A stretch of DNA of 64,000 nucleotides, taken from contig OZ076409.1 of the NCBI GenBank assembly GCA_964187785.1, positions 78,308,001 through 78,372,000 on the forward strand, written 5' to 3'. The stretch is from Amphiscolops sp. MND2022. Its lineage: Eukaryota. The notes below the pieces were generated by a model. It did no database searches, was not told the DNA's origin, and saw only the letters and a list, made by a program, of their open reading frames with translations. Positions 1-37,649 of the stretch are shown in pieces. The first letter of the stretch is position 1; every line of letters starts with the position of its first letter. The position numbers were made by a program, and so were the translations under genes.

Positions 1-1
1 T

Positions 2-628
2 AAAAATAATCACTCTGTTTCAACTTGCTTTCGTCGCCTTAATTAACTCAAAGAATCGAAACCACAATCTCGATCTCCAACTCCTACCTTTTATCAACAT
101 TTTAAAACTCCTTCAAATAAATCTCGTTATCCTCGATACCGTAGTCGAAGTCATAGTACTCCATCTCGCAAATCCTCTCGCGACAATCGCTACGACAATC
201 GCTACCATTCTCGTTCTAATTCACGTTCACATTCACGCTCTAGATACAACTATAAAACATGCTCTCGTACATATTCCCCTTCTCATAATCGTGATAGATC
301 TCGATATGACAAACATTACCATCAAAATCCTTACAAACCATATACTTCTTCACGAACATATTATAACTCTAATTCTTCTCGTAGCCCATCTAAATATTAT
401 CTCCGTTCTCGTGAACGTGGCTCCAACTTTAATACTTCTACTTTTAACAGATACACCTCTCCTTATCGTCCTCCTTCTAAACCACGCAATGATCGTTATC
501 GTAGCCGATCTCATTCAAATTCAAATCACCCCTCTCCATCTCAATATAAACCTTCCTTAAATCTTACACATCCGTCTACACCACCCATTCAAAGCAACTC
601 CCCTTCACAAACTCATTTTGAAATAAAC
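2..628 (+). CDS. gag: Gag C-terminus: end of a Zn knuckle (HSVSTC) and a long Arg/Ser/Tyr-rich basic tail, in frame with pol; in-frame TAA at 44-46
   Basis: Manual translation of frame 2: KNNHSVSTCFRRLN*LKESKPQSRSP...RYRSRSHS...; open from 47 into the 629 ORF. Confidence 0.7.
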
Positions 629-3600
629 ATGTACCACCCTAATCCTCCATTCCCTCAATCTTCTTCAACTTCTACTGAACATGCTAATGCTCTCACACCT
701 TCCACTTGGTTTGTTAACTTATTTCTTTTTAAACCCAATGAAGATACCTCTATTCCCTCTAAATTAGAACTATTATTCTTACTTGACAGTGGAGCATCCA
801 TCTGTGTTTTAAATTTACCCACCTTCACCATTTTAGCCGATCATTTTTTAAAATGTTCAAAACACTCCCCACCTCAAAATGAATATAAAACTTTAACTGT
901 TGCCAATAAATCTGAAGTACCTATTCTCCATAATCTTATACTTACACTTCATACCTCCCTCCAAGGAAATACTCGTACCCTTGTTATCCCTTTTGCAGTT
1001 GCAAATATTAAATATAATATTCTTGGAACTCCCTTCTTTGAAAAATATGTTAAAACCCTCAATATTGAAAGCATGTCATTAACATTCAATACCCCACATG
1101 AATCTCGTATCAATACTCTCCCTTTCACGGCTCATAAAGAAAAGGATTATCCATATTTTTCTTACATATACACCATCAATGTTAAAAATAAAGTTTATTT
1201 TAAACCAAATGCTTCTCAAATTATTCATTTTCCAATTCAACCAACACTTCCTTTAACATTTAAAACTTCCGATAAAGAAGTTATATTTCCTTCCACACCC
1301 CATCCATTTTTTAAAACACGCTTCAACTCCACCTTTAATTTCCTCCAAGTATATCAAAATACTAATACCGAACCTTCCAGTTGTTCTGTGATTATTCAAA
1401 ATATCACACATCATTCTGCCATTCTTGCCCCTGGATCTATTGGATACATTGAAGTTCCAGCCACTAATATTCAACCAACTCATTACAAAGTTAATGATGT
1501 TAACTCTTTAATACACACTGTATTTCATAAATATTATCCTGATCTTTCTGAACCAAAACCTCCTCGCCGACGTTCTTCTCTTCGAAACCCTCAAATTGAA
1601 ATAAACAATTTGCAACCTTCTCAAATTTTAACCCGATCTCTTCCACCATTACCATATTCACCAGACACTCAACAATTCCTTCATAAATTTAAATTCCAAT
1701 ACTCTGATGTAACTGATGAAGAATATTTACAACTTTGCTCCATTCTTGTTAAATATCGATCATGCTACGCTACACATAAAAATGATGTTGGCCAGATAGC
1801 TACTCCTTTTAGAATTCGTCTTAAACCTAATGCTAAACTTCAAACTCAAAGACCTACCAAAGTTTCTATTCACTATAGAGAAAAATTAAAAACACTCCTT
1901 GATGAATTAGAAAAACACAATATTATTCGTCAAATTGGTTCCACTCATTCTGACAAATCCATCTATGGTACTACATTTTTAAACCCCCTTATTATTATCC
2001 CTAAGGGAGATACTATTAAAGTTGTTTTAGACGCACGCCATCTTAATTCAAACACCGATCAATCTTTCGAATCTTGGCCTATTGAACCACTAGCCCCCAA
2101 CTTGCACGTGCTAACAAAAAATTCAAATCCGCTATTGACCTTATGTACGCTTATGCCCACGCTCCTTTAGATGAAGAAACTATAACTTTAACAAGCTTCT
2201 CTTCTGGTGACAAACTTTACGCTTTCATTCGTGGATTTTATGGCCTTAAAGGCTTACCAAATTTCTTCACCAAACAAATGTATTCATTCTTTCAAAAACT
2301 TATTGACCAAGGTTTTGCATTAGTTTATATAGATGATATCCTTCTCCTCGCACATACAAAACCACATATGTTAACCTTAATTGAACAACTTCATCAAATT
2401 TGTCAAACAAATAATCTTAAAATTGCTCCTGAAAAATCGTTCTATATCCTCCTCACCGTCAAAGTTCTTGGACATGAAATCGGTAATAATACAATTAAAC
2501 CTATCTCTTCTAAAGTTGATGCTCTTCACAAATTAAAAACTCCTACTTCAAAAACTGAATTAATGCGCTTTATTGGATCAATGAATTTTTACTCCAAGTT
2601 CATCAACAAATTACACATCTCTTTAAAACCCTTTAACACTCTTCTCCATGATGATATTCCATTCGAATGGACCCCCGATTTAGATAAACTTTTTAACCAA
2701 ATCAAACTGTCTCTTTCTAAAGAAGCAGAACTTGCTATCCCAAATACAACTCATTCGTTTTATATAACTGTCGATGCCTCTTTAATAGGCCTAGGTGCAG
2801 TTTTATTTCAACCAAACTCCAAAAATAAAATGCAAATAATTTCTTATAATTCTCGTATTCTAACAACCCAAGAACAAAAACTTTCTACATATGATAGAGA
2901 ACTTTGTGCTATTACCTTTGCTCTTTCTCAATATGAATTTATTATAATTGGCTCCAAATTTCCAATAACTATTTTTACAGATCACAATCCTATTCTTTTC
3001 CTTTTCACCCGTAAAGGTAATCTAACTCCTAGACAATATAAAGCTCAAATGCTATTCACCAAATTTTCAAATATACAAATAATCCACACAGCCGGTACAA
3101 ATCTTACTGTTGCAGATATGCTTAGTAGAGATTTTTCAACTATTAATACCCAAACATGCCAACTTCAACACAAAACTCTTCCTCCTCATATTGATTTTCT
3201 TCAACTTAAAAATAACAATATTTTACAACCTATTCACTACCTCGTAAAACATGAAGATGTTCTTCCTACACAAAAAAATGATTCACACATAATTTTGGCT
3301 GATTACGGTGATGATCAATTCACACTTCGTATACAAGATAAAGGCAATGTTGTTAAATATACTCCTCTAGATTCCTTTTCATTTCAATCTGTTTCTTCAT
3401 TCCTGAATAAATACAAAAAACCTGTCAAAAATAAAGTCAAAACCTTACTTCAAGAAAACCCCCTTTTAAATGAAACTGATTTATATGAAACAGACGATCC
3501 TGTTCTTAAACGTATTCCTCATCAGCATTCCCAACCATCTCATGAACTTCACACTCTTTTTACCGAAATACAACACCATTATTTCAATGATATCAATTTG

Positions 3601-5752
3601 TCTCAAGACATCCTAACCAACTTCACCAATTCCTCTCCTATTATTAATAGTACTATTGAAAATAATGCTATAACTCAAACTACTCCAAAACCCATGCACA
3701 CTCAATCTTTACCATTTTTTGACCCCTCCTTCTTTGCTCATCGTAAAGCATTTGATAATTTCTTCCTTCCTTCTGACACGTTTCTCACAGTACCTATTTT
3801 ACTCCAAGCCCAAAAGGATGATCCTGTCCTTTCTACAGTATTTAAATGGTTAAAACAAAAACAAAGACCTCATTCCTTGACTCCAGTTATTAAAGCTAAC
3901 TCCTTTTTATATACATATTATAAACAATTTCAACATTTATACCTTGATCCAAGTTCTCATCTTATTCAATATTATACTCCTAATTCTCGGGTTTTTGAAG
4001 AAATTTTATTAAAACTCAACCCTCTATTAACCAAACACGTATATGCTTACCATTCAAACTTTTATATGCTGCATTTAGTAAAACACATTCTCATGGTCAT
4101 TCCGGTGAAAAACTCTCAATTAAGACATTTAATCAATTTTATTTCATCCCTCATTTACCTTTATGGTTCTCAATTTTCATCCATGACTGCATAGAATGTC
4201 AAACTAATAAGCATTTTCCTATTAAACCCCAAAACATTTCTCCTCCTCTTCCTTTTTATGAGAATGCTACCCACTTTAATTACCGGATTTCTATGGATAC
4301 TAAAGGCCCTATTTCTCCATCTTCACAAAACAACTCCTATATTTTTGTCATCATAGATGCATTCAGTCATTTTGTTGTTACAAATCCAGCTCCTCATATT
4401 ACTTCAAAATATGCTATTCAAACTCTCCTCCACCATTGGATCACAAAATTTGGTCCCCCTCAATATCTTGTTACAGACCGAGGTACTGAATATATAAATC
4501 AAGATATGGCTCATCTATGCTCTCTTTTTCATATTAATCACTCACCCCGAACTCCTTACTCTCCTTGGACAAATGGTTTAGTTGAAGTTCAAAACCGAAA
4601 TCTTGGAACTCATCTTCGAATTTTTTTGCAAAATCCTCCTATCAATTGGTCATTTCAAACGCAAATGTATGCATATGCTCATAATACGACACCTCTTTCT
4701 CAACTTAAACTTTCTCCTTATCAGATTGTTTTCCATACTCATCCTCGTATACCTCTCACCTTTTCTCTTAACTTACCTCGTAATGCTTCAAAAAATTGTA
4801 TTGCAACTTATTGTGAATCTCTTCCCCCCATTCCCATTACAGCACCCAAGATCTTAATCCCTTCTTTCACTCAATTCTTGAAAAACCTATCTCCTCCTGG
4901 CTTTTAGCAGCTGAGACTGCAATGTTAGAAATATATTCCACTGTCCATCGTCATATAAATCATAAACTTAATTCTCAAAGTTCTACATTTGAAACAACTC
5001 ACCTGAAACAATTACCTCTTAATACATTTGTCATTCATACTAATTTTAAACCTGTTAATTTTTCAAAAAAGCTCAAACCTCTTCGAATTGGCCCATATAA
5101 AATACTTAACCATCTTTCTGAAGTAACATATGAACTCCTTTCTCAAGACGGCTCTACCTTTCAAACCCATCGAAATCATATTATACCATATTATCCCAAA
5201 GAACCTATAATTTTTCCCTATATTAAACATTACTACTCTACTCCTTCCCTTATTAATAATCCTGATACTGAATCTTACCAAGATACCTTCTCTCGCTTTT
5301 CCTCCTTAGAACCACTCCAAACCTCAAATCAGTCTCAAACTCTTACATCTTCGAATCATAAAAAACATAACAATTCCCCCACTTCCATCCCTACATATCA
5401 AAACCTTTCCAGGTATTCTTCTTCACAAGATAACTTACATAATATTCCCCCTGCTACCCCTACTAACCAAAACTCTTTACATTCCTCTCCTTCCTTTCAC
5501 AATACCCTTGACACTACTTTTGACTCTCAAGACTCTGACTCTGAAATGCTTCCTAATCCAATTTATTATTCAAATTCCTCAAATGATTCTTTCCCCCAAT
5601 TCTTTCCTCGTATTGCTGATTCTTCAAATCTTTCATCATCATCTCCTTCACTTGATCCTCTAGCTATACCTAATTCTCCAAATGAAACTACTTACACACG
5701 AGCTCCTCACTCTCCTTATAATCTACGTTCACTTCCCCCCCCAACAATATAA
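629..5752 (+). pseudogene. pol: Ty3/Gypsy Pol polyprotein (PR, RT, RNaseH, IN) broken by frameshifts near 2095, 4005 and 4826
   Basis: LLDSGAS (protease); VLDARHLN and YIDDILL (RT); TVDAS, YDREL, TDH, ADMLSR (RNaseH); HSHGH...CIEC at ~4086-4199 in the 4293 frame, MDTKGP, TDRGTEY, NGLVE (IN); GPY motif RIGPYKI. Confidence 0.93.
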
Positions 5753-6123
5753 TCCCACAAAACCAAACATCAATTTTCCCCCCTAATTAAATATTCATTT
5801 TTAATTGAATTTACTACCCTTCTATACTGACGTTAGTCTAGACTTCTAATACAGTCTGACGAATGACAATTTAATTATGACAATGTAGTTAGTAATTGTC
5901 TCTTATACACCTTTCTTCACTTTATATTGCTGAGTTTAGCTGAACGGTTGCTCTAATAAAAACTTGATTTCATAAAAAATAAGTCTTAAATTTTCTCAGA
6001 CCTTTCTTCAATACTTCCTCTTCCCTCAATAATAATCTTTCTCCATCCCTTCATATTTAACCCTCTCTGTTTTAACACCACACAATTTTCTATTTTCTAA
6101 AACCACCCCAATAAACTTTCATT

Positions 6124-7471
6124 TTGTTTCCATCCTGGATCTTACTGTATTTTTGTCTGATTCCTCCTCTCAACCTTCTTCTTCTGTTTCAAGTGATACT
6201 ATACCTTCATCACAAAGTTTTTTTACCAACTTCTCAACAACCTCCCCTAAACCCTATACCAATCACCCCCTCTTTAGATACCACCCCTGTTAACACCCCA
6301 AGTCACACTCCTATTAAAACTTCTGTTCCTCAACATACTCAAACTTCTTTAACTCTCCCACTTTCTGATACTGAATTCCTTTTTGATATAACCCCTGCCC
6401 ATTCTCCCCCTCCTTCCTTTCATATCCCTGACCCTAGTGATATTAATCCTACTCTCCTACGCAATATTAATAATCCAAACATTCCTAAATCAAATCTCAT
6501 ACCTACCTCCATAAAATCTTTTCGTAGACGTTCCCAATTAGATCATTCCTTTTCTATTCCTCAACCTTGTTCTCATACTTCTTCTAAATCTTCACTTCTC
6601 TTAGCTAAACCACTAAAAATTCCTGCTCTCGAATCCCTTGATTCTCTTCAAAAGAAATCTGATTTAAGTGAAGTTGATTCAACTACTTGCTCTCTCATCT
6701 ATCCTCGTCTTCCTCCTTCAAATTCCGCCTCTAAATACACCACTTCTTCTTTAGATAACCTCCTCGACAATACCTCCGAATCTACTCTTCACCCACCACT
6801 TCGTCACAGATATAACCTTCGTAATAATCGTCGTCTTTCCCCTTCTCTTGCAAGCACTAACTCTTCTCTTTTACGTCACCACGCTCAATCTCTTTCTTCC
6901 GAATCTCTAACGGCAAATTCTCCAACTTCCGGATATTGACACTGCCTTTTCTCGACGTTCTTCTATTTCCTCTTATACTCACACTGGTCACCTTTTCTCT
7001 CGTCCCACTTCTCAAAACTCCAGTACTCTTTCATCTGACAGCCATATACTTAATATTGACCTTACTACTGACCAATACTCTACTCCTCCTACACCTAATC
7101 GTGTCGATTACCCTTTAATCGTAAATAGCACCCTTGTTAACAACCCCCGCCAAGACCCTCGTTTTCTCTACCTTGCAACCCATAAACTTAATTCAAATCC
7201 TCACATCTCTGATGCACGCCGTCGTAAAGAATTTCTTCGTCTTGAAGATACAAATTTAGAACTCAAATTTGAAATTACAGTAAAATTCCATAACTTAAGC
7301 CCCCACCCTATTCCTTCACATACAACAGTTCATTTTAAATCCCTTCCTCATCCATTTATTACCACAAATCTTAACCTTTTTGTCAGCGACCATCCCCCCT
7401 TCCGTCTTCTACACGGTTCAATCACTTTTCTTAATACCCTAACGTTTTTAAAATATACTGCACAATTTTAA
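6124..7471 (+). CDS. Orphan accessory ORF X (Pro/Ser-rich N-half, globular-looking C-half), frameshifted near 6220 and between 6911 and 6936
   Basis: Track ORF 6124-6939 plus an ATG-less open frame 6911-7471 (LQLPDIDTAFSRRSS...FLKYTAQF*) whose stop ends one base before the env ATG. Confidence 0.55.
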
Positions 7472-7472
7472 C

Positions 7473-10227
7473 ATGCTCTCTTCCTTTCTTCACTCGTTCT
7501 TTTACTTCCTTTCTTCCTTATTCTTAGCTTCTTTCCAAATTACTCCCTCTCCTGATCATGTGGATCCCAACGATCCTCATATATCGGATCTTTTAGTATC
7601 TCATTATGACTGTTCTAAACAACACAATTTAAGACAATTTAGTCTTACCAGAGTACAACCTTGTGCTCAGGCTCCGTCTGCTTTTGAAAGTACTCGTGCT
7701 ATTGTTGATGTTTTTGTTCGTGCTAAAGCTAAACGTCTTAAAGCCTGGACTTGTGAAGCTTATGTTAAACGTGAAAAATTTGTCTGTGCACAATCCGATT
7801 ACAAATACCGTCGCCATGATCGTACGGATTATCACCAAAATACTATGGAACGCCCCCGTACTCTCGATCCTACCGAATGCAAACATGCTATTCGCCATTT
7901 AAATGGTACTAATAATCCTCAACTTGATGCTTTTAATTACTCCAACTCTTTTACATTTTTCAATGATATTCAAAAACAACGCCTTTTAGAAACAAAACAA
8001 CCTCCTTTTCGTATTACTAAACTCAATACTTTTCACTATGGTGCTTTTGCTTGGACCAGCAATTCCCAATTAGTTTTAAATTCTACTTTAAAAGAAAAAG
8101 CTGTTTGTTGGGATCGCTATGAATATATTATCGAAAAAGATAGTTGGTCTCTCATCGTTGAAGAAATTGAAATTACTTATGATGATAAAGATAACAAACT
8201 TATTTACCATGGACATACCTTACCCTGCCTCCATGATGATGGTTTTTGCAAACCAACTATATTAACACCTTTTACCATTGTTTGGTTTCCTGAAGACCTT
8301 TGTTTAATATTTTCCATACATTCTTTTATTGGTAGAATGTCTAAACTTAATAATCGCTATTGGCTTGAAACTGAACACTTTTTTAATAACCACTCCTCCA
8401 CTATTTCAACCGATACTCCTTATCATGATACCAAATCTCAAACCCGTCTCTCTCGTTTTGAAATTTTCCCTGAAAATAAAATGTTTTGTAAAAAACCGAC
8501 TCCTCTACATCTTACTCAATATCCTGATCTTTTTATAACATATAAAGAAGGATTTAATATGCAAACTGGTAAACCCAATCCTCTTCAACTACCGCAAAAT
8601 GAACAATATAATCAACTTACTACCCAGTTAATATCTGGAAAAGTAATTCATACCCAAAATAAATTTCTTTTCCCTGCTTTAAATTCTTCCAATAATTTTG
8701 CCACTATTGACTATGAAGCCCATATTAATACAAAAATTGACTATTCTATAAATCATGTATTTAAAAGCATGTCTGTTGCCGAACTTAACACCCTCCATAC
8801 TATATGTGAAGTCGAAAGAACTCAACTTTTAACCATTCTCGCCATGTCCGTAAAAAATCCACAACTTGCTGGTTTTCTCTTAACTCAAAACCGTAGTAAC
8901 TTTTTATATGTCGAAGGCTCTACTGCCTGGCTATACGACTGTCCTCATCATCTTTCACCTCTTTATATTGCAGACCAATGCTATGACAAAATTCCTGTTA
9001 ATTATCTTGACACCGTCATGTATGTCGACCCTATTACACGTCAAACTTTTGAGTATGCTAATCAAATTCCTTGTGAAAATAATCCTCAAAATGTAATATC
9101 TCTTGACCCTGATACCGATCAATATTATGTTTTAACTCCACAACCTATTAAAAAAGATCCTCCTCTTCTTTTTGAACCGACTCAAATTCAAACTGCTATT
9201 AGTCCTAACACCTTTACCGCTCAAGATGCTGGAATCTATTCTCAAAAAGAATTGAAACATTTTTGGAATCGTGTTTTATTTACTAAACACTCCGACAACA
9301 CTCTTCAACTCCTTGGAAAAGCTATTAGCTATGAATTCATGAATCAACAATCTGATAACTCATTTCCTGATAATCCTTACCGTTCACTCCGAATTGGTCT
9401 TCATGACTATATGTTTAACTTAACTCCATTTTTTTTCACCTGATTGGTTCACCGATGCTTTCATAAAACTTTTTGGCTACCCATGCTATATTTTAACCCA
9501 ATGTGGAATTTATTTCTCTACCGCTCTCTTCCTACAATTTGCTTTCAACACACTCTTTAGTATTTATCGTTCATTTACTGTTCGAAATTTGCTTAAAAAA
9601 CAAATCTCTGTAATTACTGCTTTAGGCTTTGGTTTCTTTGGAACCATTACCCAAACAATGATGACTGCTATGATTAAATCATCCAATTCACCATCAGATC
9701 CTAACGATTCAGATTCCCCCCACTCCCCATTGGCAAAAACCCATACCCTATCTTCTAGTCCCAAAACTCGTCCACCTAAATACCATACGAATATTAAAAC
9801 GAAACTCCTTAATTTAAAAAACAAAACTCCAATGCAAAGATTTTCACCTAATTCTTCTCCAAGTAAACCTATTTCTTCTCCTATTCCACATTCTACTCCC
9901 ACTAATACTGAAGATCATTTACTCCCACCCCCACATTATAATTCTCACCTTTCATCTCATAATAATCTGTCTCCTCGACCTCCTCAAATACCTTCATTAA
10001 CTTCCTCTTTATATTTACATAATTCTCCTCCTCCTGATGACACCAATTGTGATAATTCTTCAAATGATTCCCCCATACATAACCTATGGCAATCTACAAA
10101 ACTTTATCCCCCTACTCCGCCACCAATTAAAACTAATGACATCCCCTTAACTTCTGTTAATAATATTTTTGACCCCTCTGACAGTCCTGTCAAAGTTTAT
10201 TCTTCTTGCCGTTTTCCTCCTGAATAA
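7473..10227 (+). CDS. env: Envelope glycoprotein resembling class III fusogens (chuvirus G / herpes gB-like); +1 frameshift at T8 run 9429-9436 joins ORFs 7473-9443 and 9589-10227
   Basis: Hydrophobic signal peptide, HYDCS, Cys-rich ectodomain with several N-X-S/T sites, TQYPDLFI, HINTKIDY, CEVER, CYDKIPV...VDPITR; after the shift PDWF...YILTQCGIYFSTALFLQFAFNTLFSIY (TM) and a Pro/Ser-rich tail. Confidence 0.85.
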
Positions 10228-10542
10228 ATTTTCATTTCTTAATTTCTTCATTCCATATCCTGCATATTAATACTTTAATTTACTTACTTCCAAATCAATT
10301 TTACATATTAATCTTTGACCTCCTTTACATACTAATTATAAATATCGTTACCTTTTTCCCATTTCATTTGTAGTCGTTTTTGCTTTTCATTTGGTCACTT
10401 CTCTTTCTCTTCTCCAAAATCACTCATCTTTCACATTTCATAACATCCTCTTTTGCATCTACATACCTTTTCCAAACTACTCATACAACGTACGTTTGTT
10501 TCGCACTCAACTTTTGTCTTAAACTCCTTTCGTGATTTCAAA

Positions 10543-12033
10543 ATGACAAATACGAATCCTGAAGAAGAACTCTTGTCGAGTATAGCTTCATTGTCACCCC
10601 CCCCCCTTTCTCTTAAATCTGGTACCCTCGATATTCCTCTTGTCACTGACTCCTCGCTTCCTCTTGATTCTAACCCCACACCAGAACCCACTTTAAATGG
10701 TACTTCTACAACTTCGCAATCCCTTAATAAACCATCTTCTGTAAAACTTAAAACTCGTCATTCTCCTACCCCGCCTCCTAATAACCTTCATTTTACTGTT
10801 GACAATCATCAAATTCCGCACAAAAAGAAATATAATATTCTTGAAGATCCCGTCTTCCTTGATTCTGGTATCCTCCCTCCAACCCTTCACCCATTGAAAA
10901 CTCCTTCCCAATCTAATACAATGACCGACGAATTTCTTCGCACACATCCCAATTTTAAAGCCAATCTTCCTTCACTATATATGACTCCTACATCTTATAA
11001 ATTTCGCCTCCCTCAAGATCGTAATTTTGATCATTATGTCGCCTATGCTTCGAAAAACCTACCACAACTTGCTTTCTGGCAAAATAAACGTATTCGTTTC
11101 TTCCAATTTCAATTCAATCTTCTTAAACCAACACAACATGATTTAAATACCAATCCAAATGATATTACCACCACTCCTTCTGTTAAAAAACTTCACCATC
11201 AAGCCTACCAACTTTTTTTAGAACAAAAACATCCCCAAAAGTTTATTTTTCAAAATCACAAATTCACTTCCCCGTTTTCCTACCACTCTCACTATTCTTT
11301 AAATCATCTCTTCACTATTGGAACAATTCGAAATTATGATCCAGTTAAACAATATTTTATTCTTTCTTCTTACCATGATCCTACTCGCCCGTTGTTTGTT
11401 CCTCAAGAAGCTCTTAATGTAAATGATGACTTTCTCCTCCCAACTCATATTCCTAACGCTGTTCCTAACTTCTTCCCCAAAATGAATAAATTAGTTGAAA
11501 CACCTCTTGACGATCACTCCCGCTCTTTATATACAGCTCTTATTCACAAACACTATTCTCTCGCACAACTCAATTTTATTATTGCAAAACTCTCCTCCTT
11601 TATTTTGAAAAAACAATATAAATATTTCTCTTTAAATGTCTCTGATGAAATTCTTCAAACTCTTCCTAAACATACTCCGCCTAATACAGTAACTGAATCT
11701 TCTCAGGCTCCTCCTTCAACAATCCCTCCTCAATCAAATTCGTATGTGCTTCAGACTACAAACCCTAATGTTTGTATCAACTCCTTCTCTTGTCCTACAG
11801 ATAAATTTGTCTCCGAAATTCTCACTCTTCTTCGCCCTCATGTTGAAATTGCTCCTAATACTGATCCATTTGTTATTTTAAATCACATTTTTGACACGTT
11901 CCGTATTCTCCAATCTTTACTTCAACTTCATTCTTCAGATATCCAAAATTTGACCCTTTCTACAATTCATGTTAATGATTTTCTCAAAAAGCTTGTTTTA
12001 CTTGAAACTCCTCCTCAATTGACTTCATCTTAG
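10543..12033 (+). CDS. Orphan accessory ORF Y of the retroelement (~496 aa from ATG 10543)
   Basis: Uninterrupted ORF with the element's compositional bias, between env and the LTR; no recognised family. Confidence 0.7.
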   Translation: MTNTNPEEELLSSIASLSPPPLSLKSGTLDIPLVTDSSLPLDSNPTPEPTLNGTSTTSQSLNKPSSVKLKTRHSPTPPPNNLHFTVDNHQIPHKKKYNILEDPVFLDSGILPPTLHPLKTPSQSNTMTDEFLRTHPNFKANLPSLYMTPTSYKFRLPQDRNFDHYVAYASKNLPQLAFWQNKRIRFFQFQFNLLKPTQHDLNTNPNDITTTPSVKKLHHQAYQLFLEQKHPQKFIFQNHKFTSPFSYHSHYSLNHLFTIGTIRNYDPVKQYFILSSYHDPTRPLFVPQEALNVNDDFLLPTHIPNAVPNFFPKMNKLVETPLDDHSRSLYTALIHKHYSLAQLNFIIAKLSSFILKKQYKYFSLNVSDEILQTLPKHTPPNTVTESSQAPPSTIPPQSNSYVLQTTNPNVCINSFSCPTDKFVSEILTLLRPHVEIAPNTDPFVILNHIFDTFRILQSLLQLHSSDIQNLTLSTIHVNDFLKKLVLLETPPQLTSS

Positions 12034-12682
12034 CATTCTTCTTTTCCAGAATTTCTTTTCTGTGCACTTTCTCTTACAGTAATTCTCTCATTTGGCAAGA
12101 AATCAAACCTTTTCTATTAAACATCCTTCCTATATTTCCCAACACTTTTCTCCTATTTTGTTTAATGATTCGTTTTCTTCTCCAAGCATCTTATCTTATA
12201 CTTTCAAAACTTTCCTCAACTCTTTTACAATCTTTAACAATCACTCTTTTCACTTCCTCAATCTTATCTTCTTTGACTTTAATACCTAATTATATATCTA
12301 TATAATTTCATTTCCTTCCTCCTCATTTACATATATTACTTCATTTTCCTTTCATTTTGACACTTCTTCCTATTAACTTCTTTACATTTAAATACTCTCA
12401 CTTGACATTTTTAATCGTTCTTCTTTTAAAAATTCTGACAACAGGCTCTTCATCTTTTAATTCTATTATTTTTAAAGTAATTTCCTTTTCTCATTTTTTT
12501 CTTCTCATTTACTCTTTCGAAATCTCTCAACTTCACTACTACTACAAAATTTTCCTTCCTAATTTTCAACTCATCTTCTGAAATCAATAAATTTCATCAC
12601 AACATTTTCTTTCTCTATATTAAACTGCTCTCTAGTATTTACAATAAGTACAAAATAATTCTACAATAATTTTGTTTTAGTC

Positions 12683-13459
12683 ATGTCAGATTATCCTTCT
12701 TCTTCTCTGGCATACCCTCTCCTTAACCAACTCCTTGACTCTCTTCTGCCATTTCCTGTCTCTTCTACTTCTTCGACATTCACACTCTCGACCATGGATA
12801 CTTCTTTGTCTGTAGCATCATCATCAGATACTTCTTTGTCGGTGGCATCATCATCATCATCATCATCTGTTTCTTCAACTCCTACTATTCAACCGCCACT
12901 CAGCTCTCTTGTGACCACAACTACTCTTCAACCGCCACTCAGCTCTCTTGCGACAACAACTCCTTCTCTCCAAATTCCCGTGACTTCTTCTCTTCCACAT
13001 CCAACTTTGTTGCCAATCTCCACTATTCCCCTGCACCTTCACGATGCAGTCGCAACTTCTCCCAATCTTCAACAATTTTCAGCTGTTCGACAATTGACGC
13101 ACGATCTTCAAATCAAAAAACCACGGCACCCCAAACGTCCACAGCTCTCAAATGGAAACGGTCCACCTGTCCGTCGACTGGTCCACACATGGGTCTACAA
13201 ACAGAAACTTTCACAATATATCGACGCACTCAAAATGTACGAAAAACATTTAGATGAACTCATTTATCAAACTACGCTCCAATTAGATATTATTAATAAT
13301 AAACTCCCCCCTTCAAAATTACGTACATTTAAATCGCCTCCATTCACAAATAGACCTTTATCCCCATTGACTATTCAAATCCCCCCTCATAATTGCTCTC
13401 ACTATAACAATTACATTCAATGCACTACCCCCCATTGTTCCCATGTTCCAGTAAAATAA
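12683..13459 (+). CDS. Orphan accessory ORF Z (258 aa): Ser/Thr/Pro repeats, basic and helical segment, His/Cys-rich C-terminus
   Basis: ATG-initiated ORF with internal tandem repeats (DTSLSVASSS x2, QPPLSSL x2), KKPRHPKRP, and HNCSHYNNYIQCTTPHCSH. Confidence 0.6.
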   Translation: MSDYPSSSLAYPLLNQLLDSLLPFPVSSTSSTFTLSTMDTSLSVASSSDTSLSVASSSSSSSVSSTPTIQPPLSSLVTTTTLQPPLSSLATTTPSLQIPVTSSLPHPTLLPISTIPLHLHDAVATSPNLQQFSAVRQLTHDLQIKKPRHPKRPQLSNGNGPPVRRLVHTWVYKQKLSQYIDALKMYEKHLDELIYQTTLQLDIINNKLPPSKLRTFKSPPFTNRPLSPLTIQIPPHNCSHYNNYIQCTTPHCSHVPVK

Positions 13460-14914
13460 ACATGTCATTCTCCTTTACCCCCCCCCCTCTCTCTTTCCCC
13501 CGCATTAATTCCCATTCGTATTGAACCCGTAACACCACCCTCTCAATCCCCCACTCCTTTAAATGATTTAGATAATTTAGTAACTTCCTTAAACGATGTC
13601 GATTGAACTTTGCCCTATGTTTTTTTTTTAATTCATTTGTACATTTTGTTCAAAATCATCTATGCTTCTTGGTGTTTTCATACATTTCACCCCGCCCCCT
13701 ACCTACATTGATTGTCACCCCCCCACCCTTTTATTTTCAACATTTCACCTTCTTTTTTAATGATGATTTAAAATTTTTCTTTAGTGTTAAACAAAATTTT
13801 TCATAAATTTCTCTTATAACTTCGGTTCTACTGGACATAATTTTCTAAATTACATATTCCCATGCCCCTTCCGACCCAATCTCTTCCAAATTGTGGAGCT
13901 ATCTTTTTCTATTCAATTTTATTCCACTTCAATAAACATTTTTTTCAACTCAATTCCAATTTTTAACCTTTCTCCCAAAAACATTTTTAACTTTACTCCT
14001 CTATAACTTCAATTCTAAAAAATCTCCTCGTTTTTCCTTACTCTTCCCAATTCACAAATTCAAACACACTCACCTCACTGACAAACTCTTCATCCTTTGC
14101 CAATTCTGCAACTGAATTCGTTCGCTCAAAAATTTTGAAAAATGTGTGAAATGACCTGCCACATGATCTAAATTTGAACAAATGTTGACTCACATAGATT
14201 TGTTTTCGCCGCCAACTTTGATCTAATCACGCCGCCTTGTTTTGAAGTTCTACAATTTCATTTTCGTTGCTCACAAGCCAAGACTCAAAAAAGATCAACG
14301 CTTAGTTAACAAACAACTAAGAATCTTTTGTCTTCCATGTTGAACTTCTCTGTCAATCAGGCTGCCAAAATCTTGCCAAAAATTTTTCTGTCACACTCCT
14401 GCCTGCCACTCAAATCTTTTGCCGCTTCGGAAGAAAACTAAACATTAAGAAAATTGTGAATGAATTCAATACCAAAATAAATCTTATGTGAAATTTCATA
14501 CCCATCACCAACATGAACGTAAAAGCAACTCTAAACAAATTCTTATTTTAAAAACTCCAAATAAATTCTATAACTTATTGATCAAAATTACCTAATATCT
14601 GGAAAATTTTTGCTTCCCAATTTTGCACGCAACTCACGTAAGGAAAGATACAACAAGAAGACAACTTTCAAGACAATTTCCAAGACAACTTTCTCTTGAG
14701 ATATAAAAATTTTTTTTCCATAAAAATTTATATTAGCAAATACCAAATTTCCTTTTTAACCAAATACCATATTTCATCTTTAGATTTTCTCGTATTATCC
14801 CTTAAACCAATCTCCGACAATTTTAACAACACCCCAACTTTTGAATATACACTAATCAATCTTAAATTTAACACCACAGTTTACTTCCATTTTTATTTTC
14901 AAAACCCGGTCGGA

Positions 14915-15526
14915 TGATATACCATGATTGATGCTATACTATAAATTATATTTATCCCCCCGCCCCGTGTATGTCTAGACTGTAAAACTACAATTGTACT
15001 CCATTTATATTCTAGATGTAAAATGATTGATGTAACCACTTTATATTCAATACCATAGATCGATGTAACTAATTTATATTCAATACTATAAACCTTCATT
15101 TAGAACACAACTTGAATTGACTCTTCACCGATTAGTTGTCTTCACTCTAAGACCTAATAACTGCAGCTCTATTAGTGTCTCTTAAAGTACTAATCGTAAC
15201 ATCAATAAAAAGATTCAATTCCTCGTATAACTAAAATACCAACTACAACCAAGTACTTTAACAGATACGTAAGGAGTGCTCAACAACATTGGTTGTTGTA
15301 TGGCTCGCTCGCTTCGATCCCTTCGCCAAGTAGCAACATTGAGGCATGGATTTCGGCTGTTTGGGAATTCCTCATCTGGCAGTGGATCGAAGTGAAGCAT
15401 TGGAAATAAAATGCTCAACAGAATAAAGCATTTTCCCACTGTGTATTCTAAGATAAAGGGTAAGGAAACAAAGTTACTACTATAATATCTTCTTTCGCGA
15501 GTATTGCATCAAAGCAAACTATATCA
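14915..15526 (+). repeat. Candidate 3' LTR of the large Gypsy element
   Basis: TGATATA at 14915 and TATATCA ending 15526 (7-bp inverted termini); ~25-bp direct repeats near 15029 and 15062; TATAAA ~15087; AATAAA 15204. An alternative end is ...TTAACA at 15262. Confidence 0.5.
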
Positions 15527-20231: not shown

Positions 20232-23200
20232 ATGGCTCTAGTCAACGATCGTAAGTTAGCATTTTATAATTTCGAGCATTTTCGAAAATTCTTGGTTTAC
20301 CCCAGATCTTTTCTTGGAGAAAATATATATTTGCAATGTATTGTCGTACGTTAACTTTTTCAAACGTTTTCACAATGGATGTTTCCGAATATAATTGGAT
20401 ATTATTGGTGTTGCAGTGATATCACAAGCACTGATGTTTTAGATGGTGCACATAATATTTCAAAGAATGGCGGGTCTGGAGTGAGGCTGTCAGAGCCATT
20501 TCAGTAAGTTTTATTCTGTTTTCGAAATCCAACCAATGTTTGCATAGATGGAAGCAACACTTTAGATGCTATTCCAGTTTCTCACGTAGCATGTACCATG
20601 TAATCTTCCTCAGTAGGCGAGCGGGAATAACGTCTGAAGTCAAGTCATGCCCAGATATGCTCCTTTCCAATCTTGATACCTCGAACTTTTAATGTTATTT
20701 CTTGACATGTTATTCGCGCCTCTACGTTCAGTAGTGTGGCCCCGCAAACATGTTCCCGAGATTGCTCGGGACCACACTGCTTATGGAGGTTACTGACTGA
20801 TCACATTACTTTAATCGCCATAATCAAGCATTTCAGCAATCATGAGAAATTTTGGGTATCCTTGAGTTGTATGACTTTTCCGGAACCTCCCTGAAGTAAT
20901 AAAGAGCTAAGATAACTTTTAGTTCAATTTTCAGGAGGGCTCGTCACTTGAGAATATACTCTTCCGGGTCCACTATTTAAGGATGTGTTGAAACATATTT
21001 GAGCGGGTCCTAACTACTTAAGAATTGCCAAATCTGGTTTGCGCGTCAGCTTGAGTATTGAAAATTATTCACATTCATTAGTTGAGGAATTACGCGTAAG
21101 CCAATGATGAGAAGTAATCCATCACAAAAAATTATTGACCTCAAAAATGTCATGCGATTTTTCTTCAGGGTCAAAGCAAATGCTACAGATTTACGACATA
21201 AAGTAAATGCCAAAGCTAAAGGGGTGATAACTTCATCAACGAGGCAGAACAGAGACGATGAAAACTTTGCATTGATCAGGAAAAGACACAGTTATACTGA
21301 GGTGAACGGGCAATTTAGATGCAATGGATGCAATCGGTTGTTCAAAAGAGAAGGACAACTTGATCGCCATAAATGCTTCAAAGAAGATTTTTCTCCTGAT
21401 ACTGCTGAAGTTAAAGATGCGAAACGGAAACGCCCAGATTTACCTCGCGCAACAGCGCCACCAAAGAATGCCCCATTCATTCAAAAAGCGAAGTCAGAGG
21501 TTCCTTACAAAAAGGTTGGGAATACAAAACTTGAGAATCTGGAAGAAGGGCCGTTTTTCTATCGCGTGAAGAAAAACATTCAGCTCTGTAATCCAGATGT
21601 GGAAAATGGATCCAAAAAAGTTGAAGTACAAGTTAGTGTAGAAGGAGACACAGAGGAGGTTATCCGGGAAATGTATCAATGTCTAAATTGCGAGGCAATT
21701 CTTCCTAATTTGGAAGATATTTCAAGACATTTGAAGGGCCATATGCCTACCTATCAGTTTTGCTGCAAATTTTGTCCTGATAGATGGCGATTTACTCATG
21801 ATACCTTGTCTGGAGTTTTGAAGCATGTTCGTTCTACTCATTCTAGTCAGTACGATTCGTTGACATGCGTACGTTGTGGATTTGAGGCTAGTTCGGCTAC
21901 TGATCTGGAGAAGCATATGGATTTAAAGCATTATCCAGGCACAACTTACAGCTGTTCAAGTTGTGGCGATAATTTCGGTTTATCTATTTTGTCTTTGGTG
22001 AATCATGTTCGAGCAAAGCATGCTACCGAGGATCCGTTGCTACTGGAAACTGTTGTCATCGAGGCTAAAACATTATATCAGTCGGAAGATATTTATGAAT
22101 GTAATATCTGTTCCAAAATTTTCTTCTTGAAAACTCACATCGAAGCTCACAAAGAAGCCCATGCATCTGGGAGTTTGGACATCAATGACGATGATTGCGT
22201 CGGCCTTTTCAGATGTTGTCACTGTAGCTATCAAGCTAATCACGTTGAGGAATTAAGACTGCATTTCAATTTGGCTCACCAGCATCTGATGTGCAAGATT
22301 TGTGGCGCTATTATCATATCTGGGCCAACTTTCACGGAGACTCTATTAAATCATGTTTTAGTTTCTCATGAAACTAAAAACGACTTCGACGCCCTTTCCT
22401 ATTTCGAACAGTTATTCAAAGAAGCTAAAAATCTATTTTCAGTCAAATCGTCCCTGAAATGCAAAATTTGTCCGAAAATGTTTTTCACCCGCAAGTCGTT
22501 TTCCGAACACATGCGAACTCACGAAGGTGGTAACGTTGTGAACTTCATCTGTGAAGTTTGTGGCTTCACTTGTCCTACAAGACAGAAGTTGAGGAGACAC
22601 GTGAGAAGTCATAAATTTTTGTATTACTGCCCTGATAGCAAACTATTTTTCACTAGCAACCAAACTTTACAAGAACATTTGATAAACTGCTATTCAGATA
22701 ACGAAGAATTACCATGTCATGAGTATAAACGCAGTCTTGTAGTGAGTTTGTTTTTACCGGAGCCAGGATTTCCTGCCCACATTCCACAGAATTTCGTAAA
22801 CAATGATATTATTATTGATTTCTACAAAGGAAAAACGACCAATCTATGTGGTGAAAAATTTGAGTTCCCGAAGTACGCGCAAACGTCTTTGAACAAAGCT
22901 CAAAGTAAAAACAACGAAGGAACCGAGGAGACTAATCATGAATTAGATGAAGGATATAATTCTCCGATGGAAGTTATCGAGACTGAGAAAAATGAAGCTG
23001 AAAAGTGTGATCATAATTCTCAAGAAAATAATATGGAAAATGCAGAAACTTCTGTTACAGAACAAGGGGCTTCCGAAGCAGTTGGTGAGGGAACAACAAT
23101 TTTATTGGTCACTGGCGAAGAAGGATCAGAAGAACAAATCGCCATAGAGTTGCCTCCTGGAACAGACGGTGCTCAAACTTTGCGGGAATTGGGATTGAAC

Positions 23201-26200
23201 GTTGACAACTTGAATTTACCTGAAGATCTAGGTTCAAACGGCGCAAGTTCTAATTATAGAAATAAACTGGAGCTATGTATTGATAGTCCTTACATGAATT
23301 GTGAGAACACCGAGTTCTGTCTTGCTCTGGCTTCTCAGAAGTACTGTTGGATGACTGAAGAAACGCTTCAAGCATTGATGAACTCTTTTGGCGACATGGA
23401 ATGTCTCTATTGCGGCAAGTTTTACCACAACGCTTCCCGTTTTTACGCTCACCAGAACTTACATACCAAAGCCACTCAATACAAATGTGTGGACTGCGAC
23501 TATTTCTCTCACAGCATCCAGCTTCTGCGATATCACCAAGACAGGTCGGTGACTCACTGATTCATTATTTTCCACCTTTATTTCATATCTAGGAAAAGAA
23601 ATGAAGCCCACATGTGATAGCGTTTTCATCAAAATACCAAAATTTTTCTAAGAAGTTTTCTAAAAATTTTTCTGATTTCAATCGAGGTTTTTATTATTTC
23701 TGCTTTAGCAGGAATATTATTGAAATCTCAAAATGTCTACTTTTTTTTCAGTACAATTGTTGGCACGATACTGAATAATTCAGATATTTTGTTCGGCAGT
23801 GACTATAAGCGTGAGAATTGAATTTCTCAAGCTGCCGACAACATTTCAATCCTCGTGCGATGGAACGAGCGAGTGGTAATTATGCATTCGTAAGCTGACA
23901 TCATTGAGATGAAGCGAGCGAATGTTCGTAATTGTGCTTTCGTTGCGCCGAGTTGAGATGAAGCGAATGAGTGTTAATTATTCTTTTGCGGAGAGCTTCG
24001 CCTGCATTCAAATATGTTTGCTTTAGTCCGAGATTTACTACTATTACTACTAAAAGACTGAATTGATTCTAGTCAGCAATTGATTCTAGAAAGAAATACT
24101 TGATGGTATTTACATGTACAGATTTTTTAAACAACAGATTTAAAGGCGGTATAAACGGGTACAGTGCTTAATTGTGCGCTAAATAATGAATAAAACGGAA
24201 TGTATTGGTATTCCAGATGAAAGATTGAAGCAGAAATAGTAGTGTGCCCCGGAGGGGCCTATTTTCCGGAAAGATAATTATGCTCAGATAGTTTGAGTGG
24301 AACCAATTTGCGTCTATTGTCGAGAAATGGTGTCTCAAGGCGTGTCATCAAGCTGTCTCGCAATCTGATTGGCCGATACTTAGCCGATTGGGAAATATTT
24401 GATCCTAACTCATTCGTTTTTCAAATTTTCAGTTTGTTCCAAGGTGCTTACTCTACTTTGCTTACTCTACTTTGCACAAGTTGAAAAGTTTTCAGTATTT
24501 TGAAAAGTTTCTTACTGAATCGTACAGTCAAGTCGCCCCTTCACAATTTAAAATAATGTGATTATGAATTTTTTTACGGAGAAAGTCCTGGATTTAATAC
24601 GGTGTTTTATTCTGATTTTAGAACGACAAAATTCACAATTTAAAATAATGTGATTGATTTTTTTACGGAGAAAGTCCTGGATTTAATACGGTGTTTTATT
24701 CTGATCTCAGAACGACAAAATTCAATCAAATTTATTCTCCAGCCAAAAGTTAACGGTGACCTTGATTTCGGAGCAGTGTTTACACCATTTACTTGAATAT
24801 AAAAGTTATCCCGACTTCCACTCTGTCGAGCCAATGAGCGTGGAATCTTCTAAATTTCAAATTTTGATATGAACTAGATATGATTATCATTTCTAAACGT
24901 TTGTATTTTTGAAAGTTGATCATTTTCGTTTAGAACTCATGGGATAGAAAATCTGAGATGCAATGAATGCGAGTACGTTACAACGAGTCGAGTCAGATTA
25001 GCTCAACATCTGAAGAAACATTTGCCTAAAATGGAGAAAAAATGTCAGAAGTGCCCTTTCACTTGGTATGATTTTTCTGATCATAGTAGACTCAAAAGTA
25101 TTGATATCACTTAATCCCTTTTCAATTTTCAGCGAAGTTGATCGCCGAATGAGGGAGCATTTCACTGTGTACCACCCAGAAAGTACCGCAGAAGAGATAG
25201 CTTTGGCTATCGGTGGTAAAAGAAGCGCAAACGTAAGTTACCGTATAAGCTTTATTTCCGCATTATTTTTACTGGTAAAATGGAAGGAAAGATTTGTTTT
25301 TAGTCGGCGCTTTTCTAGTGAAAAGTGCCCGACTCTTACAGTGGCTAGTTTTTTTTTCGTCAGACTACAATCTCACTCTGATTGGGCCACTTTTCTTACA
25401 ATCGAAACCACTACCATAAGGGCAAGTCCGGTCAGCGGAAATTAGTGCAAAAGGGTCACCCCTTTCATTTTTTACTATTTTAACGTAACCTACAAAACCG
25501 GACGAGACTAAAGGGTCCCCCCTTTCGATTTTCTTTCGGCATTGTGCGACATTTTTCGAAAATTTTTTAATGTCAAAATTGTCCCCCTTTCGAGTTTTTT
25601 GATATTTTGCAACAGAATATATGTTAATAAAGCCCAGAGGGTCCCCCCTTTTACATTTTTAGGCACTATGCGACATTTTCTGAAACAAAAAAAAATTCAA
25701 AAATTTCAAGTTTTTTTCAAAAAAAGTCTTTTGCGCTTTTTGAGCCTTAGATATAGAGCCGACTTTAGACGTTCCCGTCTTGTTTAAATTCGAGGTTTGT
25801 GATATCAAGACTTAACATTAAATACACCGTTTTTAACTTCAATGAACGAAATTTTAATTTAGTTGAACGTGCTTCTTAATTCCACCAATGACAATTGAAA
25901 TAGATCAATGCTATCACAATTCCAATTTAGATGAATAAAAGCTAATTTTATTTGAATAAACACGAAAGCTAACAAAACTCGACAGCCAATTAAAAAAGTC
26001 ATTCCAAATTGTCATTTTGGTTGAATAAGAATACAATTTACTTGAATACACCAATTTTACTTCTAATGAAGCATGCTTACGCATCAATTGACCGATAAAA
26101 TGAGTCGTATCCTAACCATAGCGTCGCTTTATATTTCCACATTGAGTAAAAAATCACTTTCAGTGAGCTCTAGCTGCGAACGACGGAAAACGAGGCAATA

Positions 26201-29200
26201 GAATTTTGAATTTGAATGAATCAATCGCTAAGAAAATGATTTTTCACTAAGCAGCGAGAAAGAAAACTCTAACAGTGACGTGCAAGCCTTTTGCGATCAA
26301 CAACAGCTACGTTTGTTTTCATTCTGCAATATTTATTTAAAGTGATTCTCTATTCATTTCAAATTGAGATTGAGTTGGCAGAACTTCTGATTGGTTTCCG
26401 GAAGTTTGTTAATTCTTAACTAGGTTCACTTGAAATAAAATTTGCTTCACTTATTTTGGAACTGAATTTTTTGTTTTAAGTCGTTTTTTGTTTGGCTGTC
26501 AACGCCACTTCGGTATTCAACTAAATTGGAATTCTCTTCATTTAAATTAAAATTGGTGTAAAATGGAGGGCAGAGAATCAAGCAGCAGTTGCGTAAGTTA
26601 AACTCAGCAAATTCTGTCTCAGCGAAAGAAGGAGATATTGGAAATTGGTGATTAGTTCATCTAAAATGGAATTTAATTCAATTAAATTGAAATGTTGCCT
26701 GTTTAGTTTTATCGCCACTCGCAGATTCATCTAAAATGAAATTTATTCATTTAAATTGACGTCGATCAGCGGCGACAGGTAAATGGAACGATTACATCTT
26801 ATTGGTGAATTCATTCAACTTGAAATGATATTCATCTAAATTAGAAACGGTGTATTAGGACTTAAATTATTCGAATAACTTGTGCTTTTAACCCTAATTA
26901 ACCTGGTGGTACTTTAAAGCAGCCTACCATTTTTTCAGTTTCTGATTCCTTTTGCCAGCAGCCCATATTCTCTAGCACAGTTTGTATGCAACACTTCATT
27001 GGTACCTGATTCAACAGAGTGAGTTGAACGGCACAAGCATTAGGAAGAGTAAATATGTCTCCAAAACTGAGAAAAATGAGTTTTTTTGCAAAAAAAATTT
27101 TTCTAAATTTCAGTTTTTGGCGAAATCCAGTTTTCTCAAAAAATCGTGACCCATAGCAAAAACCAAACCCGTACACTTGCATAACAAGTTCTTACGCAAC
27201 AAGTCCAAATAATATTCTATTGTTACTACAAGCCCCGCGCAGCGGGCTGCACGAAGTGCGGAACTACCGAGATGCGGCGGTACCGGAAAAAGAAACTAAA
27301 AGTATGAAGGAGGGGGCGCGCGTGGACAGGGGCTCACTTGATCGAAATGAAAGCCCAATACCAGGCCTTTCAAACGCGCTATAGTTCGTTTCTCTGGTAC
27401 GCGTAGCTGTGGAGATATTAATTAATTTATATTTTTAATCCGAATTTTTGCAAGAGCGCCCAGGTCCATTAGGGTTAATTCAAGATATAAGTTTTCCCTT
27501 TTTTCGTCGGACTACGGAATGTATCTGAATAATCCACTTATTACAGACTTCTAACCTAAGACCTAACGCTTACCCAAAGCAGCCAACGGGTTTTTGGCGT
27601 TTTTAGTCCTCCCCTTTGGATATTGTTTGACGCTACGAGATTTTTCAAAGTTTTCATTACAGACTGCGGTTTTTGAGCAAGTTATAGACGTTCTTGTCTT
27701 GTTGATTCGTGCATTGCCATAGCGAAGAATTCAAAAGATTTTACATACAAGATTGTTTTGAACAAGTATTCGGACTCCAGTGGGTTTTGTTGAAGTTCGT
27801 GTTTCGAGGACAAAGTGTGGTTTAACTTGATTGAGCTTGTATCTGTTAGTGTGTAATTATGCGGCTTTTAGATGGTGCCCAATCTGAAAATCGAGCCCTG
27901 TAAAATGTGCGGAAAGGTGTTTGAGAGCAGCTTGTTGCAAGAGCATTTGAAGAGTCATCAAAACGAGAGTGTCCTTAAAGTTAGTATTCGAACAAATCTT
28001 TCTCATTGCGACTATATTTTTCAATTTTCAACGTTTCTGCTGTTTTAGTGCTCACAGCCTCAGTGCGAATTTACCTGCAGCAATGAAGCCTATATGACGT
28101 CTCACGAGCAGCAGCACGAGAAAGCGAAAGCAGAGGCGCTGAAAGCAGCACAAAATGTTCACATGTTCTCTTGTCCCTTGTGCAATTCTCATTTGAAGTC
28201 GGAAAAAGCACTCACTTCTCACATAGTGAATGCGCACTTCGAAAGTGACGTGTGTCCACAATGCGGCCATGAGGTTGGTTAGCTTTTAACTATCAAAAAA
28301 TTGATTTGTCGAATAGTGGTTTGTACGAAAGTACAGACTGAAAGTGAATACATTTTGGCCTTCGTTTCGAACTTTGAAACACGTTACAAACATGTTTGCT
28401 TCAAGTATCAAACGTCTGTTTTGCTTTAGAATCTTTCAGCAGACTATGTACATGCTTCACGTCGTTTTTTTCTACTACCTGATATCACTTGTTAATGTGT
28501 AGGATAGATGAAACTTGAATAAAATGTTGGAATTCCGAATAAAATGTAGCTGGTCGATTATTTGAAAGTGTTTGCATCCCTTGCCTAAAGTATTTTTCAA
28601 TGCTTGCTCTGTTAGATTTTCAAATGTAAAGATCAAAAGAGCATGTGGATGATTCAAATATGTGCACTAAAATGACAGATTTTGCTATATGGCTGAATTT
28701 TATGTTATTTTAGTCTGCCAACAGAGGTGATTTTCACTGCCATCTGCTAATCCACAGCGAAGCCAAATCGTATGCTTGCAATATTTGCCCGACTGTTTTG
28801 CTGCAAGAAGCTAAAATGGAGGAGCACTTCAGAACAAAGCATCCAGGGTTGAGGGTACGTTGCCTTTTTGCGCAATTTTTAGGAGTCCGAAAAAATTTTC
28901 GGCTAATCATGCAATCGTGTCGTTTTTTTTCCCGACCTTTCATGAAAATTTCAAATTTCTCAAAAACTGTCCATACGATTTTCATAAAATTTTGCACAGT
29001 CAATCTACACCCAAAGGAGCCCCTACATGCGCAAAGGCATCAAAATCGTATGACTGGAATGTGAGAAACATAGCCAAAATTAGCCCAAAAATGGCCAAAA
29101 AACAGTCATTTTTCGACTTTTTTCGATTTTCGCAAAAACTCCATACGATTCGAACGAAATTTTTAGTCATTCTACACCATATTATGGTCCTTTGTGTGTA

Positions 29201-36670: not shown

Positions 36671-37649
36671 GGTTTCCAGTCCGAAAGATGCAAACATTCG
36701 ATTCTTGCAAGGATTTTTACAGCTGCAACTTTTTCCACTCAGTCGCCCTGAAACCTCCCCGCCTTTTAACACGGGTTGACAGGCCTGGTGACAAGGGTTG
36801 GGTTCGAGTCCAGTACTGAATCATTTTTTTAATGCTTACAAAGGCAGAGAAAAAACAATTTTTTCAACCGAAGAGCCTCCGTTTGATCTTGTAGCTTAAA
36901 CAAAGCGTTTTGCGAGCATAAAAGACCCTCTGTTATATAAAATTGTTTTCCGAATCTTTCGTCAATTGGTCAGTTTTAGCCCTGTAGAGTTGATGAGATT
37001 TTTCTGAATAATTGGGGAAAAGACCCACACTTTTTCCACATTGTGCGACTATTATTCGAAAAAACTTTCGTTGGGTCAAAGGGTACGCCCCTCTTTTTAA
37101 AAGTGGGAAAAACGTTTTGTAAACTAAAGGGGTACTCCTTTTTGTTTTTTTGACACGTGAGACTTTTTGAGCATTTGGATCAGCGCCGTTCATTTGGTAT
37201 ATTCAAACGCCGGCCTTTTTGCTCCCGGAAAAAGATGTCAGTCGCCACGCAGAGTGGACTTTCATAACCCTTTTCATTTGGTTGGAAAGTATGAAAATAT
37301 TCGGACAAAGAAAATTAGATCTATTCGTTGGACCAGTGAAACTGACTTCATCAGATTTAATTTCTTAGAGACCCGGAATTTGGTAGGTCACTTGAAAGCC
37401 AATCTCGTGAGCTAATGAGAAATTAAAGTTTCTCGACCTGTACGCCTTGGTGTCCAATTATCAATAACGTACTAAAGCAAAGATTATACGTTTCCATAAA
37501 TAATTTACATGTTCAATTATAAAAACAATAATGTAAGCAGTTTTGCCTTGCTAGTAAAAATTTAATTTGAAGGGAATGTGTTGGGTAGGGCCCGCTGTTA
37601 ATTATGGTAGATAGAATACACATTGCCATCGCAGGCGGCCGCCTAGGAC

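Follow-up and report, generated by a model that had tools for sequence, protein, structure and literature searches.

A Ty3/gypsy element of a probable acoel genome with an env gene predicted to be of the herpesvirus gB/chuvirus G type, and motifs resembling late domains in env tails among its relatives

The segment at positions 7473–10227 of the window (the whole 64,000-nucleotide stretch of contig OZ076409.1 that was analyzed) is almost certainly the env gene of an 18.8-kb Ty3/gypsy long terminal repeat (LTR) element, with a product predicted to be of the herpesvirus gB/chuvirus G type. The explanation that we favor as a whole, with a probability of roughly 0.8, is that a class III env has long been carried by this pol lineage, and that particles would bud via motifs in the tail of Env. 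The parts of env in the window copy are as follows:

7473–9443, forward strand: putative signal peptide and predicted class III ectodomain (656 amino acids, 14 conserved cysteines)
9424–10227, forward strand: membrane-proximal region, anchor, second hydrophobic helix, and Pro/Ser-rich tail (a separate frame in the window copy)
about 9490–9546, forward strand: putative membrane anchor, placed by hydropathy
about 9604–9660, forward strand: second hydrophobic helix, placed by hydropathy

The single 656-residue frame that starts with Met at 7473 contains the whole series of motifs listed in the original prediction, with YDC at 7605, TQYPDLFI at 8514, INTKIDY at 8724, CEVERTQLLTILAMSVKNP at 8805, CYDKIPV at 8979, and VDPITR at 9024. 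The fourth of these had been written as CEVER..LL...A...P, in which the spacing before the proline was short by two residues. The ectodomain frame stops at 9443 and the remainder of env lies in another frame (9424–10227). Since both parts form a single open reading frame (ORF) of ~920 residues in sibling copies, the window env is broken once, near 9424–9443. At the N terminus, a hydrophobic stretch (7473–7529, Kyte-Doolittle 1.48) could plausibly act as a signal peptide. A candidate for the C-terminal transmembrane segment that had been predicted along with it is located in the other frame and is weak in the window family (1.41, from hydropathy alone), whereas the first hydrophobic segment after the ectodomain reaches at least 1.6 in 32 of 35 relatives. 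In an alignment with a relative (E = 1.6e-9), the window anchor pairs with the anchor region of that protein. At ~30% identity, the aligned rows (14–16 of 14–16) retain every one of the 14 cysteines. PF24664 (Monjiviricetes_fusion) is the sole Pfam family that matches the ectodomain at E values up to 1, and its match (E = 2e-27, 95.9 bits compared with a cut-off of 27) is far above chance expectation.

The predicted fold of Env is closest to herpesvirus gB and to chuvirus/xinmovirus G, not to F, as judged by model comparison. The model is gB-like and multidomain, with the same order of domains and a long central helix, and its domain IV superposes on that of gB with a root-mean-square deviation of 3.5 Å; the two proteins differ in that their identity is only ~10–12%, and no gH/gL-like partner was found for the window Env. 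The glycoproteins of Monjiviricetes (PF24664: Jingchuvirales, Xinmoviridae, and relatives) provide the profile match as well as the best structural matches among viruses (chu-like and xinmovirus G), although at 12–15% identity only, and the window env is distinguished by its position in an LTR retroelement and by its long Pro/Ser tail. PF12259, the family of baculovirus F-type env, has no match in env at E values up to 1. Two of the checks proposed with the original prediction, profile similarity and structure prediction, agree with its assignment to class III rather than to the F type, and the product of env is predicted to be a membrane-fusion protein of the gB/chuvirus G type. Several features argue against this assignment. 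The env sequence has no match to any solved structure; whole-chain TM-scores are low (0.2–0.4) and the predicted TM-score is 0.57, in a monomer model in which domain placement is uncertain; and predicted fusion loop 1 is polar/basic in the window family (AQSDYKYRRHDR), whereas most relatives have W, M, or F. Predicted fusion loop 2 is hydrophobic (both loops are positioned from secondary structure only).

The element surrounding env extends upstream of the window, with its 5′ LTR at G000:C1:78304472, 3.5 kb away, and is 18,789 bp long, with TG...TA ends and a 4-bp target duplication. Its other parts within the window are as follows:

47–5752, forward strand: 3′ part of gag-pol, with a protease DSG motif, reverse transcriptase (RT), RNase H, and integrase with a GPY/F tail (Pfam RVT_1, RT_RNaseH, rve, SH3_Tf2-1)
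6115–7471, forward strand: ORF X, Pro/Ser/Thr-rich, in two frames in the window copy, no Pfam family
6697–6711, forward strand: IYPRL in ORF X, an ALIX-type late-domain-like motif (LYPRL in siblings, LYPPL in the sister family)
10543–12033, forward strand: ORF Z, 496 amino acids, no Pfam family, 42% identity in the sister family
12683–13459, forward strand: ORF V, ~260 amino acids with a Ser/Thr/Pro-rich start, no Pfam family, weakly constrained
14915–15260, forward strand: 3′ LTR, 346 bp with TG...TA ends, identical to the 5′ LTR
15261–15264, forward strand: target-site duplication ACAG

The order of protease, RT, RNase H, and integrase, the Pfam families, and the nearest solved RT (that of Ty3, E = 1.4e-29) identify pol as Ty3/gypsy (Metaviridae). 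A BEL/Pao-type pol, as in Anakin, was ruled out, since gypsy-type Pfam families alone were matched. In six siblings, gag-pol is followed by ORF X, env, ORF Z, and ORF V, in this sequence. In the window copy gag-pol is spread over four frames and its gag start lies upstream of the window; in parts of sibling copies it is one frame, and Retrotrans_gag is matched in one sibling. The 30 LTR loci that were fetched include 22 that form 11 pairs, 18.8–22.8 kb long, with 342–346 of 346 positions identical and exact target duplications in 10 of the 11. A 200-residue env query of the genome gave 7564 candidates, and the 150 that were scored are all 96–100% identical; the window element has been copied many times, and recently. 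The primer site (G000:C1:78304820-78304831) can pair along 12 nt with a tRNA-Met(CAU), which is probably the elongator tRNA; the complementarity extends to 18 nt in three related families, and its first 11 nt are common to all seven families examined.

The ratio of nonsynonymous to synonymous differences (pN/pS), pooled over comparisons of the window copy with six siblings that are not independent of each other, is 0.18 for the env ectodomain, 0.30 for the C-terminal piece of env, 0.26 for RT, and 0.17 for integrase, as well as 0.34, 0.38, and 0.72 for ORFs X, Z, and V, respectively. Env is under purifying selection. ORF X is 30–36% identical to its sister-family counterpart and has no Met in the five window-family copies examined or in the sister family (477 and 418 amino acids), so that splicing, a non-AUG start, or recoding would be needed for its expression. 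A YNLR motif is common to ORF X and the end of integrase. The AlphaFold model of ORF Z is unusable (pLDDT 39.5).

In each of the nine other elements that were examined, among them a metagenome contig (L053) with the same pol lineage and env, a related gypsy pol lies upstream of env. The RT/RNase H of the window element is 44–71% identical to those of the nine, compared with 28% when the gypsy carries no env. Behind related pol (integrase 32–67%), the genome has at least five more env families, which share the primer site. Trees of env, integrase, and RT were constructed for ten elements (the window family, eight other genome elements, and L053), and the integrase and env trees share supported groups, with F752 unresolved in the integrase tree. 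Such congruence fits long co-inheritance and does not fit a fresh capture, and env has probably been inherited together with this pol lineage over a long time. Two properties of the trees weaken the case: the RT tree has no starred branch, and viral G proteins are not included. An ancient exchange of env with an ancestor of Monjiviricetes-type viruses may have taken place, in either direction. The search of the genome with PF24664 gave 5702 first-look candidates, with further env families present, compared with only five first-look candidates and one weak match for the F-type PF12259; by these profile searches, nearly all env in the genome appears to be of the gB type.

The original prediction had proposed an independent capture of the fusogen by a single Gypsy lineage. 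A recent event of this kind, with a chuvirus glycoprotein as its source, would agree with the viral proteins that give the best structural matches and with the Monjiviricetes origin of PF24664, and capture of chuvirus G by BEL/Pao elements is described for mosquitoes in the available part of PMC10084718. However, the viral proteins are only 12–15% identical to the window Env, compared with ~30% for env of other retroelements, and env co-diverges with integrase over the ten elements; the further families behind related pol with their shared primer site, as well as the metagenome element, also speak against it, and we consider a recent capture highly improbable. It is slightly less improbable, yet still unlikely, that env of the window family is a relic or is fusion-dead, with an element that multiplies intracellularly. 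The window copy and many others are indeed broken, and fusion loop 1 is polar. On the other hand, pN/pS of the ectodomain is as low as that of pol, all 14 cysteines are kept, a full-length env frame is present in many copies, and all 50 scored copies of the sister family are 98–99% identical over their whole length. Against long carriage of a class III env by the pol lineage it must be said that each of the six siblings examined has at least one break in gag-pol.

The tail of the window Env contains two PPxY motifs:

9772–9783, forward strand: PPKY, present in 11 of 12 sibling tail readings
9928–9939, forward strand: PPHY (as PPPHY), present in all nine sibling tail readings that are long enough; PPPFY in the sister family

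Tails were compared among 303 env-search proteins, the ORFs of 13 loci, and the window piece. An anchor region followed by a tail of at least 25 residues is present in 98 of them, which form 35 clusters at 60% identity, each represented by one member, with genomic context available for a minority. Against composition-keeping shuffles, the motif [LIF]YPx[LIV] is found in 13 of the 35 (shuffle mean 0.3, maximum 3), YPx[LIVMF] in 20 (2.7), P[ST]AP in seven (0.26), and PPxY in six (1.7, a count reached in 2 of 300 shuffles), and any strict late-domain motif in 21 (2.1). YPxL, P[ST]AP, and PPxY are thus enriched in the env tails of this clade at the level of sequence. Reversed motifs occur in 0, 0, and 2 of the 35, the counts in 32 ectodomain stretches are likewise 0, 0, and 2, and Yxx-hydrophobic without proline is not enriched (17 compared with 17.3 expected). 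None of the 595 tail pairs align by BLASTP, and late-domain-like motifs are absent from seven Gag ORFs and from eight integrase tails. In ORF X, LYPRL is present in all four siblings, with IYPRL in the window copy and LYPPL at the same position in the sister family (shuffle chance 0.05 for LYPRL and 0.07 for LYPPL). The sister-family ORF X also carries PSAP, and two other downstream ORFs carry single late-domain-like motifs. A gene with an ALIX V domain is present in the host genome.

Since env tails carry such motifs and the seven Gag ORFs carry none, budding may be driven via the endosomal sorting (ESCRT) machinery by Env rather than by Gag, a proposal for which we put the chances at even. 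With slightly less assurance, we can suggest that gB-type Ty3/gypsy elements place all three classes of ESCRT late domains not in Gag but in the fusogen's tail, and that part of this function has shifted to the Met-less ORF X in the giant, probably acoel lineage. Some caution is called for by the data themselves: the three motifs were spotted in otherwise unalignable tails (alignment A2) before they were counted, which makes the counts post hoc, and the tails share ancestry; 14 of the 35 have none of the three strict motifs; the tail of the window family has no canonical YPxL or P[ST]AP (LYPPT only), and that of the sister family also has no canonical YPxL. Finally, in 11 of the 35 relatives the hydropathy of the second hydrophobic helix attains 1.6; this helix might cross the membrane, in which case the tail would lie outside.

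The tail motifs might instead serve sorting or turnover (endocytosis, ubiquitin-dependent degradation, or exosome loading), or the tail might not be cytosolic, an alternative that is possible but that we do not favor. The tyrosine sorting signal Yxx-hydrophobic includes YPx-hydrophobic as a special case, and PPxY also flags membrane proteins for Nedd4-dependent turnover. The second helix leaves the topology ambiguous, and the lack of motifs in seven Gag ORFs is not below the shuffle expectation of 0.1–0.9. However, it is the proline form of the tyrosine motif that is enriched and not the form without proline, P[ST]AP does not serve as a signal for adaptors, all three late-domain classes are present while their reversed forms remain rare, and ORF X has LYPxL in just the two families that lack it in the env tail.

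If budding via Env-tail motifs is accepted, Env would be translated from a subgenomic RNA, enter the secretory path, and trimerize, anchored by one membrane helix with its tail in the cytosol. PPxY in this tail, as well as LYPxL in ORF X, would recruit Nedd4-type ligases and ALIX/ESCRT, leading to envelopment and release of Gag-Pol cores, and the ectodomain would fuse with the target membrane as in other class III proteins, giving access to the germ line or stem cells. The window copy would be unable to do this alone and would depend on other copies.

A Gypsy element with a gB-type env is not novel in itself. In the available text of PMC13524379 (Chary & Hayashi, eLife 2026), such env genes are described as widespread in Ty3/gypsy and as abundant as F-type across animals, homologues of the chuvirus-like gene of BEL/Pao are placed next to gypsy pol, and an ancient origin is argued, with the entry mechanism and the mode of transmission stated as unknown. 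The 'ancient errantiviruses' of that work, as far as its available text describes them, resemble the window element in the succession of Ty3/gypsy gag-pol and an env of predicted gB fold, in multiple copies, in co-divergence of env with pol, and in an env with a plausible signal peptide, conserved cysteines that would form bridges, and a putative C-terminal anchor. The window element differs from them in its length of 18.8 kb, three extra ORFs, a 1.7-kb gap between pol and env, and TG...TA ends; the automatic filter given there accepts regions of up to 10 kb and gaps of up to 1 kb, and some groups were extended by hand. No mention of acoel hosts was found in the available text or supplements, nor of 'late domain', 'ESCRT', 'cytoplasmic tail', or 'budding' in the available main text. 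A literature search largely confined to openly accessible papers found no report of late domains in gypsy/errantivirus env, listing instead work on vertebrate ERV taxonomy, general reviews, and studies of retroviruses, and no relevant report of an acoel endogenous retrovirus with an envelope. Anakin, as available from Dezordi et al., has an env of the same family (chuvirus-derived) on an LTR retroelement, but its pol is BEL/Pao, unlike the Ty3/gypsy pol of the window. The retroviral late domains P(T/S)AP, YPXnL, and PPxY are described, in the available part of PMC8402826, in Gag, matrix, and other structural proteins; the same three motif classes are present in this env clade, whereas here they are found in an accessory ORF as well as in the tail of the envelope protein and are late-domain-like by sequence alone. 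The env type on Ty3/gypsy is therefore already known, and what is new is the likely acoel host, the five-ORF layout (Met-less ORF X, orphan ORFs Z and V), and the late-domain-like motifs in env tails.

Further features of the element and its relatives may be listed here. Roughly eight or more frame breaks are spread over positions 47–13459 despite the identical LTRs, and about half of the frame-changing indels relative to siblings are located in runs of at least four equal bases; the breaks may reflect assembly error or mobilization of a defective RNA in trans. No purine tract precedes the 3′ LTR (14895–14914, AAAACCCGGTCGGA), and related families have a similar CCCGG-type motif. The LTR of the window family ends with TA (15259–15260), those of six related families with CA. 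A strong C-over-G skew (down to −0.64) extends over positions 1–15260 and the sister family, and is much weaker in other families. Other gB-env families have their own orphan ORFs behind env (L053:9651-12095, L126:2026-3597, L128, L130, L132); those of L053, which has a tandem pair, and of F821 are related (E about 1e-8). In three related families (L149/L128, L150/L130, L151/L132), the LTRs measure ~2 kb, and pol is separated from env by 4 kb of mostly non-coding sequence. Elsewhere in the window, 21086–23560 and 28714–31619 are exons of host C2H2 zinc-finger genes, 34568–36819 is a decayed env-less gypsy fragment, and 46510–49974 is a decayed DNA polymerase B-like remnant (Polinton-type, by eye).

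The host is very probably an acoel. At conserved positions, mitochondrial COX1 agrees with a translation by table 5. Table 5 is not the mitochondrial code of flatworms, echinoderms, tunicates, cnidarians, or vertebrates, which are therefore excluded. The best 30 of 82 homeobox matches, classified by eye, include Cdx and, on three contigs, a single Hox gene each of the anterior, central, and posterior class, and one Hox gene of each of these three classes is the acoel complement according to the available part of PMC5054442. Homeobox exons of Cdx (L075, L076) and Lhx (L069, L070) are duplicated close together, possibly by the assembly.

With a likely acoel host, the case for an ancient origin would gain a bilaterian phylum that branched early, and the genome offers for comparison several families that have expanded recently. 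Env-driven budding can be tested cheaply and directly through the short, conserved motifs of late-domain type in the tails. If it is true, Env would be a budding adaptor as well as an entry protein, opening a route to how invertebrate env-bearing retrotransposons leave cells.
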